Of a stretch of 27,711 bases of DNA, positions 15,654 to 19,662 are shown in pieces. The notes under the pieces are model-generated. The model saw only the letters and a program-made list of their open reading frames with translations. It ran no database searches and was not told the origin of the DNA. Made by a program: the position numbers and the translations under genes. The DNA is from a virus, in UHGV virus genome UHGV-0119636; one strand, given 5' to 3'. Position 1 is the first letter of the stretch, and every line of letters begins with the position of its first letter.

Positions 15654-15863
15654 CTATTTACTCCGTGATAAGAATATGTCCAATGCTTCTAGGTTAGTTA
15701 ATCCAAGAACCTCTTTTAACTTAGCCGCTTCATTTACCGTAAATGCATCAAATCCATTTAGCTTACGATAAAAAGAAGATCTGTTGATGTCGATCAGATC
15801 AGCGGTCTTAGCCACGTTCAATCCCTTTTCGACTATCTTGCCTTTTAATTTATTCGCATTCAT
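15654..15863 (-). CDS. Cro-like small HTH regulator, 69 aa
   Basis: ATG at 15863 with SD GAGAGGTGA; helix-turn-helix-like LNVAKTADLIDINRSSFYRKL; divergent from the plus-strand repressor-like gene. Confidence 0.6.
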   Translation of the reverse strand: MNANKLKGKIVEKGLNVAKTADLIDINRSSFYRKLNGFDAFTVNEAAKLKEVLGLTNLEALDIFLSRSK

Positions 15864-15908
15864 GCACATCACCTCTCGCTGTATTTGTCGCTTATCTGCA
15901 ACAACACG

Positions 15909-16088: not shown

Positions 16089-16685
16089 ATGACAATAGGA
16101 CAAAAAATAAAAGAATTACGCAATCAACTTAATATGTCGGTGGATGATCTTGCTGTGAAACTGGGTAAGAACCGTGCGACTATCTACCGCTATGAACGAG
16201 GAGATATCGAGAACCTCCCTCTCGATGTACTAGAACCATTAGCAAATGCTCTTGAGACCACACCTGGTTATTTAATGGGATGGGAAGAAACTACGAAAAA
16301 GAAAGAGCCTTCAATTATCGATGAAGTTACCATGGGTGACGTTTTTAAAGCGTTACGTCTAGGAAGTAATTTATCGATAGAGGAATTTTCGCATGAGATT
16401 GGATTATCTGCCCAAGACATAAGCAATTATGAAGCAGGAAAGACTCCTATACCTGTAAATATAATTAATCTTGTTGCTGATTTCTTTGGCATATCAATAG
16501 CGGAAATAGTTAAGGCACACAAAAACAGCGAAAATAGAACGCCTTCTGGTTTCGAAATGAAAAAGGAACGATTTGAACGTTTTAAAGTTTGGAATAAAGA
16601 GTTTGGACGAATACATTTTACTGATGAAGAAATCAATAAAATAATGGAATATACAAGGTTCTTACTTAGCCAAAGAAGACAGTAA
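16089..16685 (+). CDS. Tandem-HTH XRE-family repressor-like regulator, 198 aa
   Basis: SD AAAGGAG; two XRE-type helix-turn-helix units (residues about 1-65 and 80-140); no peptidase S24-like C-terminus seen. Confidence 0.75.
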   Translation: MTIGQKIKELRNQLNMSVDDLAVKLGKNRATIYRYERGDIENLPLDVLEPLANALETTPGYLMGWEETTKKKEPSIIDEVTMGDVFKALRLGSNLSIEEFSHEIGLSAQDISNYEAGKTPIPVNIINLVADFFGISIAEIVKAHKNSENRTPSGFEMKKERFERFKVWNKEFGRIHFTDEEINKIMEYTRFLLSQRRQ

Positions 16686-16770
16686 GTCTACATAGGTTTA
16701 CTCTATTTAAAGGAGGTGATGCCTGAATTCAGTTCATCGTAGAATTTACATCAAAGGAAAGGTGGAACCA

Positions 16771-18348
16771 ATGACAACGTTTGATATGAACAACGCTGTA
16801 GACAATGCGTTCGGTATGGACGTATATGCTATCTATCTTCGGAAAAGTCGAGCCGATGTAGAAGCAGAAAAACTTGGAGAAGGAGAAACACTAGCAAGGC
16901 ATAGAAAGATACTAACAGAACTTGCTGCTAGAAAAGGATTGTATATCGGTAAGATTTACGAGGAAATTGTATCTGGTGAAACAATCGAAGCTAGACCTGA
17001 AATACAAAAACTGATAGAAGATTGTTATAAAGGGAAATATAGAGGAATCCTAATAGTAGAAGTTACTCGTCTATCTCGTGGTAATCAAGGAGACGCTCAA
17101 AAAATACTCGACTGTCTCAAATATTCGAATAGAAACAATGGTGTATTAGTTATCACTCCTACTAAGACTTATGACGTTGCACACAGCCAAGAAGACGAAG
17201 AATATATGGAGTTTGAATTGTTTATGTCTCGTCGAGAATATAAGATGATTCAAAAGCGTATGGATCGTGGCCGTAAACAAGCAGTCGTAGAAGGAAACTT
17301 CATGGGTAGTTACCGTCCCTATGGATATGACATCTTAAAAACCAAGACCGGACGAACACTTATACCGAATGAAGATGAAGCTCCTATCGTGAAAATGATT
17401 TACGAATGGACAGTTAACGATAATTTATCTCCTTTCAAGATAGCTGAGCGTTTAACTAATATGGGTGTTCCTACTTATTATGGTGAGAAGGATTGGTCTA
17501 AAGAAACAGTTAAAACCATTTTGACGAATCAGACATACATGGGTAAAGTTCGTTGGAATGATCGAATGACTGTTAAGACTATGGTCGACGGAGAACTTAA
17601 AGCTACACGACCTCGTTCAAATCATTCCGATCACTTCATGCTATATGATGGAAAACATATGAAACACGCACTCGTCGACGAAGAAACATTCAAAGCAGCC
17701 TCCTCTCGCTTTCATAACGATAGGACAAGATCAAATCTAAAACTTGTTAATCCTCTTGCAGGACTTCTATTTTGTAAGAAATGTGGTAAATCTATGGGTT
17801 ATCAATCATATAGACATAAGAAAAACGGACCAATGGATCGATACAATCATAGACAGTCTGCTAATGGATGCAAGGTTAAGTCAGCAGTTGCTGAGGATGT
17901 TATAAAAGCTGTTATACATGCTTTGAAACTTTATATAGAAGATTTCGAATTTAAGTTAGACAACACTCCAGATGTTGACGAAAATTCAATCAATACGCAG
18001 CTCGAAGCTTTACAAAAAGAAATACGAAAATCCGAACGAAAACTTGCTAAGCTATTCGATTCTTGGGAAGATGAGAAGATAACAGATAATGAATTTGTTC
18101 AAAGGAAAGCCGTCCATAATCAGAAGATAGAAAATATAAAGAGGCAAATGGAAGAACTCGAATATTCGATACCAGAAAGAGAAGAATATGAGGATAAAAT
18201 AATATTGCTGTCTGAAGCACTTGTCGCTATCACAGACGAATCGCTTGACGCAGATATTAAGAACGAGTATCTTAAAAGAATCATTGATAGAATAGAGTTT
18301 AGTAGAGAGAATAACTCAGAGTTTATACTAGATATAGACTTATGCTAA
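16771..18348 (+). CDS. Large serine recombinase (integrase-type), about 525 aa
   Basis: ATG at 16771 after AAAGGAAAGG (track start 16762 is GTG); N-terminal YAIYLRKSR catalytic-serine region, Cys-rich zinc-ribbon CKKCGK...C, C-terminal coiled coil. Confidence 0.8.
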   Translation: MTTFDMNNAVDNAFGMDVYAIYLRKSRADVEAEKLGEGETLARHRKILTELAARKGLYIGKIYEEIVSGETIEARPEIQKLIEDCYKGKYRGILIVEVTRLSRGNQGDAQKILDCLKYSNRNNGVLVITPTKTYDVAHSQEDEEYMEFELFMSRREYKMIQKRMDRGRKQAVVEGNFMGSYRPYGYDILKTKTGRTLIPNEDEAPIVKMIYEWTVNDNLSPFKIAERLTNMGVPTYYGEKDWSKETVKTILTNQTYMGKVRWNDRMTVKTMVDGELKATRPRSNHSDHFMLYDGKHMKHALVDEETFKAASSRFHNDRTRSNLKLVNPLAGLLFCKKCGKSMGYQSYRHKKNGPMDRYNHRQSANGCKVKSAVAEDVIKAVIHALKLYIEDFEFKLDNTPDVDENSINTQLEALQKEIRKSERKLAKLFDSWEDEKITDNEFVQRKAVHNQKIENIKRQMEELEYSIPEREEYEDKIILLSEALVAITDESLDADIKNEYLKRIIDRIEFSRENNSEFILDIDLC

Positions 18349-18408
18349 ATGGTGGCTTTGCTGCCTGTAAGACCTGCACTAAAATGGTGTAGGTAACTTT
18401 TTCCCCGA

Positions 18409-18458
18409 CATATATATCATGGTTGTGTTTCTTTTATATCGCCACCATGATATATATC
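18409..18458. repeat. Inverted repeat CATATATATCATGG / CCATGATATATATG, 22-bp spacer; candidate attP or operator
   Basis: 13 of 14 bp match; sits just after the recombinase stop and before the small paralog genes; a second inverted pair TGGTGGC/GCCACCA flanks it. Confidence 0.3.
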
Positions 18459-18504
18459 ACAGGGAAACTATTCTAAACGTTGATATATCAAGGAGGAGAT
18501 ATAC

Positions 18505-18756
18505 ATGAGAATAGTATGGAAAGACAGTGCGCCTAAAACAAAACCTTGGTTGACGTTCAAATATAGAGAACATATCGTTAGCCAATATGGAGATGGATGG
18601 ATTACCGATATACCTGGTGATAACAATATCTATTTTCCGAGAGAGTGTGCTTATAATGCAATCGATAAGTCTCTAGGTGGAAAGACACGAAAAGCTAATC
18701 CTCAAAGACATAAATTAGGAATAAAAGTTATTGGTAGAAAGGACGATGTATCATGA
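18505..18756 (+). CDS. Small protein, MRIVWKDS family, copy 1, 83 aa
   Basis: Strong SD AAGGAGGAG; stop overlaps the start of copy 2 (ATGA). Confidence 0.6.
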   Translation: MRIVWKDSAPKTKPWLTFKYREHIVSQYGDGWITDIPGDNNIYFPRECAYNAIDKSLGGKTRKANPQRHKLGIKVIGRKDDVS

Positions 18757-19004
18757 GAATCGTATGGAAAGATAGTCATAAGCCAAAAGAATATGAACCT
18801 ATGAAATATCGAAATATTTACATCTTCGGTACTCCTGAAGGATGGGAAGTAAATATAAAAGGAGATAATAATCTATACAAGACTCATTACTGTGCTATGA
18901 ATGCGATTGATGATTACTTTGGAGATTTTGGAGAACGTGGTACAGAAAAACGTAAACGATATGGAATACAAATAATAGGTAAGAAAAATGATGAGACTGC
19001 ATGA
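18753..19004 (+). CDS. Small protein, MRIVWKDS family, copy 2, 83 aa
   Basis: Shares MRIVWKDS, GW, GDNN-Y, CA-NAID and GI-IG-K-D motifs with copy 1. Confidence 0.6.
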   Translation: MRIVWKDSHKPKEYEPMKYRNIYIFGTPEGWEVNIKGDNNLYKTHYCAMNAIDDYFGDFGERGTEKRKRYGIQIIGKKNDETA

Positions 19005-19012
19005 ATCTCAAA

Positions 19013-19046
19013 AGCCACTTCCTTTTCTGGAGGTGGCATATTTTTA
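19013..19046. terminator. Bidirectional intrinsic terminator between convergent genes
   Basis: Hairpin GCCACTTCC-TTTTCT-GGAGGTGGC followed by ATATTTTTAT; lies between the plus-gene stop at 19004 and the minus-gene stop at 19053. Confidence 0.6.
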
Positions 19047-19052
19047 TCTAGG

Positions 19053-19595
19053 TTAGACATTTCTATTTTCGTATGACGTAAATTTTACATTTGTGTACTC
19101 GTTAACCAAAAAGCTACATGCTTCATTAACTGTTTTAACGACGGATTCCCCTTCTATATAACTCTGATAATTCCTTCTTTGATTTTCAAATTTAAGATCA
19201 GGTTCAACCATGGTATCTACACTTAACCATATTAGTTCCGTAGTATAGTCTTCGGTAAAATATCCTTTTATAAAAACCTCTTTCTTTCCAACCGTTCCGA
19301 TTAGTTTTATAAACGACATATCATGCTTCGTCAGATTAAACGCATATCTTATTCCTTTTACATATTGCCCGCCAAGTTTCCTCGACTTAATTGTTTCATA
19401 GTAATTATCTTTATTGTTGTTCTTTTTATGCCACTCATCCGATATACAAATCCACATTAAAAGTTCGCTTAAAGTTGCAACCATGGATATGCTATTTTGT
19501 TTGTCGCTTGTGCTTAAATATTCATGAAATCTTTTATGAGATTCTCTTAATCCATGGTTTATATACATTAGCCTAAATTCTTCGACACTATTCAT
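19053..19595 (-). CDS. Hypothetical protein, about 180 aa, accessory (moron) candidate
   Basis: ATG at 19595 after SD AGGAGGA; no peptidoglycan-hydrolase motifs recognised; own promoter region with the palindrome GGAAATTTCC upstream. Confidence 0.55.
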   Translation of the reverse strand: MNSVEEFRLMYINHGLRESHKRFHEYLSTSDKQNSISMVATLSELLMWICISDEWHKKNNNKDNYYETIKSRKLGGQYVKGIRYAFNLTKHDMSFIKLIGTVGKKEVFIKGYFTEDYTTELIWLSVDTMVEPDLKFENQRRNYQSYIEGESVVKTVNEACSFLVNEYTNVKFTSYENRNV

Positions 19596-19662
19596 TATCT
19601 GCATTCCTCCTTTTATCGTAATATTCGACCATATAGGAGAAATTTCCTTTTAACCATATGAA

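Follow-up and report, generated by a model that had tools for sequence, protein, structure and literature searches.

In SPbeta, the integrase gene sprA and the gene of its recombination directionality factor (RDF), sprB, lie on either side of attP and come to stand at opposite ends of the prophage (PMC8270828; PMC6957869). Compact units of an integrase, attP and a small gene have been named site-specific recombination units. Among the RDFs of large serine integrases there is no shared sequence or fold, and such a factor can be a recruited phage protein (PMC12286644; PMC11795197). These factors bind the junction between DBD2 and the coiled-coil of the integrase (PMC12286644; PMC11795197; PMC11722253). 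Int30 has two functional paralogous RDFs in one phage, and an adjacent pair of RDFs is predicted for Int33 in a table of the same study (PMC12286644).

The window, by which we mean the whole 27,711-nucleotide stretch of the virus genome UHGV-0119636 analysed here, has a tandem pair of small genes, ORF A and ORF B, across attP from a large serine integrase. As in SPbeta, small gene and integrase flank attP, and the 3' end of the integrase gene faces the site. On the other hand, SprB is 58 aa long and acidic, whereas ORF A and ORF B encode basic proteins of 83 aa; transcription of sprB runs towards attP, so that it keeps its own promoters in the prophage, whereas ORF A and ORF B are transcribed away from the site; and in the window the small genes form a tandem pair of paralogs. 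The window integrase and the SPbeta-type SprA are distant homologs with 32% identity, and the comparison of SprB with the family of the small proteins gave an hhalign probability of 0.5% over 14 columns and no fold match. The pair resembles the Int30-type RDFs (Shin et al. 2025, PMC12286644) in that these are small phage proteins with no shared fold, of which one phage can have two similar ones. Those RDFs are, however, backed by virtual pulldown complex prediction and some by assays, whereas the pair here is a candidate put forward from sequence and context, and none of the predicted RDFs in the 98-integrase table of that study starts with or resembles MRIVWKDS, the N terminus of the family.

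Organization of the locus

The pair and the genes around it have the following coordinates.

16089..16685, plus strand: cI-like repressor of 198 aa with two tandem HTH_3 domains (Pfam HTH_3, E 4e-24, two stretches); first gene of the plus-strand lysogeny block
16762..18348, plus strand: large serine integrase (Pfam Resolvase, Recombinase and Zn_ribbon_recom)
18349-18504: spacer of 156 bp between the integrase and ORF A, holding a terminator hairpin and attP
18505..18756, plus strand: ORF A, 83 aa, pI 9.8 (basic), 'KTRKANP' subtype; first in every tandem pair
18753..19004, plus strand: ORF B, 83 aa, pI 8.6, 'HYCA..GTEKRKRYGIQ' subtype; second in every tandem pair
19014..19037, plus strand by scan: terminator hairpin with a 9-bp stem and six GC pairs, followed by ATATTTTTAT; between ORF B and the convergent 183-aa ORF
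19053-19604, minus strand: orphan 183-aa ORF between the terminator of the pair and the holin block; convergent on the pair

The sequence-only reading had described the pair as translationally coupled 83-aa paralogs with a conserved motif skeleton, and the coordinates and the alignment bear this out. The two proteins share 42% identity from end to end (E 7e-21) and have the motif skeleton in common. In the sequence ATGA, the TGA stop of ORF A shares bases with the ATG of ORF B, whose translation is predicted to be coupled to that of ORF A. Both starts are preceded by Shine-Dalgarno sequences, AAGGAGG at 8 nt before the ATG of ORF A and AGGA at 9 nt before that of ORF B. The dN/dS among relatives is 0.03-0.16, alike in the A and B groups and with synonymous sites near saturation, which indicates strong purifying selection on both paralogs; these values and the 135 homologs described below argue that ORF A and ORF B are genuine genes. 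The integrase, the spacer and ORF A lie in one shared frame, and read-through crosses four stop codons.

Tandem pairs are found in several integrase sub-lineages, with the A-type gene before the B-type gene and the two overlapping, both without exception. Other phages have a single gene of A-type or B-type, and such single-copy relatives are common. A type II toxin-antitoxin or other two-component addiction module could be suspected from the small size of the two genes, their translational coupling and their place at a prophage end. We rejected this candidate because A and B are paralogs of each other and many relatives have a single copy of either subtype; Pfam, NCBIfam and PADLOC gave no match to a toxin or antitoxin family, and we consider such a module highly improbable.

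The pair was also thought to be the only plus-strand genes besides the lysogeny module. This is plausible from the GC and AT skews, which change sign at ~16000 and ~19000, and from the other plus-strand ORFs tested, which have no PHROG support while the overlapping minus-strand ORFs have it, the check being a loose one. Placing the pair between the recombinase and a convergent terminator was correct as to the terminator at 19014-19037, whose A-run upstream of the hairpin suggests that it acts in both directions, and overlooked both attP and the integrase terminator in the spacer. The GC content of the pair is 0.34, the same as in the neighbour genes.

Two further genes of the region are recorded here. 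A divergent 72-aa repressor-like gene (phrog_3) lies at 15654-15872. The 183-aa ORF has the lowest GC of the region, 0.32-0.33, a weak match to phrog_30856 only, no Pfam or PADLOC match and no homologs in the 62 family loci described below; in its slot, relatives have an unrelated ORF of 137-140 aa.

attP and the integrated state

Three features were located within the spacer.

18372..18394, plus strand: intrinsic-terminator-like hairpin from a terminator scan, predicted to end the cI-int transcript just before attP
18400..18467, no strand: attP, a 68-bp imperfect inverted repeat with arms at 18400-18423 and 18444-18467
18480..18491, no strand: perfect 12-bp palindrome TTGATATATCAA, between attP and the ribosome-binding site of ORF A

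The assignment of attP comes from relatives whose small proteins, P0082 and P0070, are each found on two kinds of contig. In one kind, the small gene lies behind an HTH repressor (cI) and a large serine integrase (L003, L004, L007); in the other, it lies directly against unrelated bacterial genes, with no integrase (L002, L005, L008, L010). Aligning the two kinds shows that identity sets in at the AT-rich centre of the homologous inverted repeat. Forms integrated in an Exo_endo_phos (xth-like) gene, the scaffolds MT835485 and MT835495, and a tandem-pair phage (L015 versus L017) break at this point too. As free and integrated relatives part precisely at the homologous repeats, we identify the repeat at 18400-18467 as attP, and since this repeat is intact, the window has the free (attP) configuration. 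Its arms of 24 nt are 88% complementary, and the centre of symmetry, 18433/18434, lies inside TTTCTTTTATAT. Because attP lies between the integrase stop and ORF A, integration puts the pair and the integrase at opposite prophage ends: in the integrated state, the pair would be found at one end, reading inwards to the lysis genes, and cI and the integrase at the other.

The relatives show two further patterns of integration. Identical copies of P0070 with an identical P' arm are joined to two host flanks, a Pyr_redox_2 gene and a DnaJ-like gene (L008:7700-8060 versus L010:3203-3563), representing either two attB sites or two hosts. In one sub-lineage (L021, L024, L025, L030, L033, L035, L052, L147, L160), ~330 bp from the end of an Exo_endo_phos (xth-like) gene lie between the integrase and attP on the opposite strand, and the integrated forms (L006, L011, L012, L013, L027) are in a host Exo_endo_phos gene; it seems that the phage supplies a substitute for the end that its integration displaces.

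In relatives, 88-181 bp separate the integrase stop from the start of the small gene, or ~400-480 bp where the target xth gene fragment lies between the integrase and attP, and the distance from the attP arm to the ATG is only ~25 nt in the closest relatives. The RNA fold of 18340-18410 has a predicted energy of -20 kcal/mol, and a hairpin and T-run equivalent to 18372-18394 are present in relatives. The stretch from the integrase terminator to ORF A showed no sigma-70-like promoter, we found no operator common to the cI/cro region and the region upstream of ORF A, and Rfam gave for the spacer only sub-threshold miRNA-like matches, to the attP hairpin. As the genes read away from attP, the DNA upstream of them in the prophage consists of the hybrid site and the displaced host gene fragment on the other strand. 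The palindrome TTGATATATCAA has no second exact copy in the window. It is similar to the motif of the outer attP arm, TGATATAT, and related palindromes are found in L016, L048, L056 and L037-L041. A further RNA fold places the start codon of ORF A within a stem.

Genes that are essentially promoterless and lie right after attP could be expressed when transcription of cI-int reads through, or else from a promoter that attP divides. The pair might then be a lysogeny-module regulator made only from the circular (attP) genome, expressed after infection or excision and silent in the prophage, and not a classical excision factor. Such small basic proteins might bind DNA, perhaps by a weakly AP2-like sheet and helix, or bind the integrase, and they might tune integration, prevent re-integration or control neighbour genes. 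The conserved terminator before attP weakens this explanation, which we regard as unlikely.

An undescribed protein family

The sequence-only reading had not recognized the family, and remote homology searches and structure prediction gave the same outcome. Profiles of Pfam, PHROGs, NCBIfam and PADLOC gave nothing consistent for A, B and 38 relatives, the PDB and solved structures including integrase-RDF complexes contained no match and no fold neighbour, and a literature search for the motif string found no paper. The family is undescribed in the sense of having no family model, no named homolog and no paper with its motif. A collection of 5.8 billion proteins held 135 homologs, all unnamed and without Pfam domains, and an exhaustive profile search of 1.84 billion cluster representatives recovered only 94 clusters, almost all of 60-120 aa. 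The relatives come from human faecal samples, one host bin being Oscillospiraceae, and the family spans one clade of gut Clostridia phages.

For ORF A, AlphaFold2 (pLDDT 73) predicted 16 disordered N-terminal residues followed by four strands, two helices and one strand, and the model of ORF B (pLDDT 79) has the same topology. By inspection, neither protein has a transmembrane segment or a signal peptide. Compared with the integrase itself, the family profile aligned only IVWKD with VRWND, which was not significant.

The family profile also matched repeated stretches in SHIRT and Flg_new (Listeria-Bacteroides repeat) domains (E 4e-10 to 4.5e-4), located in large surface proteins (P0192, P0198, P0208, P0209, P0212). 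The matches are weak and multi-stretch, and probably reflect a local GW..D..G..Y beta-hairpin resemblance and not homology.

Linkage to one integrase clade

Two sets of loci were gathered, 62 via the small protein and 56 viral contigs via the integrase at an identity of at least 57%. In the first set, a homolog of the window integrase lies directly upstream on the same strand in 40 of 62 loci, and the rest are integrated forms, recombined junctions or loci with too short an upstream sequence; integrase relatives with 52-92% identity are found directly upstream of every free-form family member seen. In the second set, a family gene follows attP in 42 of 56 loci, and the rest comprise four with a mini-ORF, nine ended by the end of the contig and one unclear case. 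The loci with an integrase of at most 37% identity, 24 in total, contain no family gene, and we found no analogous small gene across attP in the distant integrase relatives of cultured phages (THSA-485A, C. tetani phages). Of the neighbouring genes, the repressor has counterparts at 27 of the 62 family loci and the holin at 24, whereas no locus has one of the convergent 183-aa ORF.

These counts show that the family is inherited together with a single clade of large serine integrases, whereas the genes on its flanks are exchanged. In a mirror-tree style comparison, the distances of the integrase correlated with those of the small protein at 0.38-0.45 and with those of the repressor at 0.43; as the former is not above the latter, the co-inheritance could be mere adjacency. 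Four ORFs (P0195, P0202, P0205, P0183) are chimeric, with an N- or C-terminal piece of the integrase in frame with the C-terminal half of the small protein, and are either deletions spanning attP or assembly artefacts.

The pair had been proposed to occupy a typical site of lysogenic-conversion or defence cargo. The site itself is as described: when integrated, the pair would lie at the extreme prophage end by the lysis cassette, on the opposite strand and with its own terminator, which is the classic position of a moron. In Listeria prophages with serine integrases, anti-CRISPR genes lie between the att site and the lysis genes. The small size of the proteins, the unannotated family, the common duplication and the loss of the full-length gene in two lineages would also fit accessory cargo with no mechanistic link to the integrase, serving the lysogen or the infecting phage by lysogenic conversion, by defence such as superinfection exclusion or abortive infection, or by anti-defence of, for example, an anti-CRISPR-like kind. 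On the other hand, cargo is expected to be patchy, whereas the family is near-constant with the integrase (42 of 56 loci, besides the four with a mini-ORF), and it is the next gene, in the slot of the 183-aa ORF, that looks like the variable cargo position at these loci. The pair thus shares position, orientation in the prophage and own terminator with prophage-end morons, lysogenic-conversion and anti-defence loci, but differs from them in being tied to one integrase clade, in having the GC of its neighbours with no compositional anomaly, and in having no recognizable promoter; no PADLOC defence-system model matches it, and by inspection its proteins have neither membrane nor signal sequences. 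A cargo role also leaves without explanation the tie of the N-terminal motif to the attP context and the retention of the motif in the mini-ORFs. We do not favour cargo, which seems a doubtful explanation of the pair; judging from distribution and context, ORF A and ORF B more likely encode an integrase helper, that is, an excision factor, than cargo or defence proteins.

The N-terminal motif

The MRIVWKDS N terminus is the most conserved part of the proteins, though predicted to be disordered in the monomer. M1, W5, K6 and S8 are invariant in an alignment of 38 sequences, and the octapeptide follows the pattern [IM]R[IV]xWKD[ST]. Its codons vary synonymously, with six Arg codons, GAT/GAC and AGT/AGC in use among others, which indicates that the peptide, and not the DNA next to attP, is under constraint.

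The octapeptide was seen only in attP-linked members. Distant members that keep a variant of it (P0140, P0169, P0199, P0203) lie after an attP-like repeat and a serine integrase or face a convergent lysin or lysis cassette; the integrase of L149 is 55% identical to that of the window. The four motif-less members (P0197, P0201, P0204, P0206; E 6e-9 to 7e-5) start at the first core strand. They belong to long arrays of small genes that all lie on one strand, and the surrounding 4 kb contain no integrase. Two lineages with an intact integrase and attP have just a mini-ORF after attP.

L083:4672-4767, L107:4684-4779 and L088/L089:4675-4737, attP form: mini-ORFs starting with MR[IV]VW[KQ]D[ST]

The mini-ORFs encode the lysine-rich peptides MRVVWKDSAQLANKQVKKEVKKVDKKNSKTA (31 aa) and MRIVWQDTNPKVKKPKNKTA (20 aa), which keep the motif and have a strong ribosome-binding site, and convergent holin or lysis genes come directly after them. 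It is the motif and not the globular core that appears to go with the integrase/attP setting, a pattern that is suggestive only, the sample being small and phylogenetically structured. As the phages with mini-ORFs have intact integrases, the globular core is dispensable at least in those lineages.

The core domain without the motif in the early-gene-like arrays of other phages parallels the moonlighting or scavenged RDFs, such as the TG1 gp25-type SSB and the exonuclease-like Bxb1 gp47, in which an ordinary phage domain is co-opted as an integrase cofactor (PMC11795197). Those proteins, however, are large and have known primary functions, whereas co-option here is inferred from distribution alone.

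A far-reaching version of this idea is that the octapeptide is a portable integrase-docking tag, carried by a scavenged small phage domain or by a lysine-rich peptide of 20-31 aa and enough to steer the integrase, and that the recombination state of the att site switches its expression, since the genes begin only 25-45 nt beyond attP and seem to lack a promoter. Tag and switch together would make a self-contained, recombination-coupled directionality switch; we give this combination little credence.

Proposed role and implications

Our preferred, and still tentative, reading is that the family of A and B consists of new integrase cofactors, most likely RDFs. It draws on the mapping of attP, the linkage to the integrase, the distribution of the motif and the precedents among known RDFs. 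The same mobile element encodes the pair and the integrase, and in the window, as in every relative in free form, they are neighbours on either side of attP. The integrase, attP and the small gene or genes would form one site-specific recombination unit that moves between mosaic phages. In the role of RDFs, the small proteins would bind the large serine integrase, switch it to excision (attL x attR) and block integration. The N-terminal strand may dock on the integrase, one possible place being the DBD2/coiled-coil junction that known RDFs bind, the beta/alpha core may be a scaffold taken from an ordinary small phage protein, and A and B may act jointly or redundantly.

Several observations count against an RDF role. 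The proteins have no likeness to SprB, published RDFs or solved structures; the mini-ORF phages lack the core, and co-inheritance with the integrase may reflect adjacency. Induction of an RDF in the lysogen is also hard to account for, given that the genes read away from attP, that no promoter was found and that in close relatives only ~25 nt lie between the attP arm and the ATG.

If the pair were cargo, the finding would add one more unannotated prophage-end gene family. The likely role of the family is that of a known class, the RDFs, among which diversity is to be expected. Genome engineering makes wide use of large serine integrases, each needing its own directionality factor for reversibility, and the lack of any shared sequence or fold makes these factors difficult to identify. 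A family serving a whole clade of gut-phage integrases as their cofactor would be a rare case, syntenic with the integrase and recognizable by a short motif. Together with the attP and the several attB sites that we mapped from metagenomes, it would offer a ready set of integrase, attP, attB and cofactor combinations.
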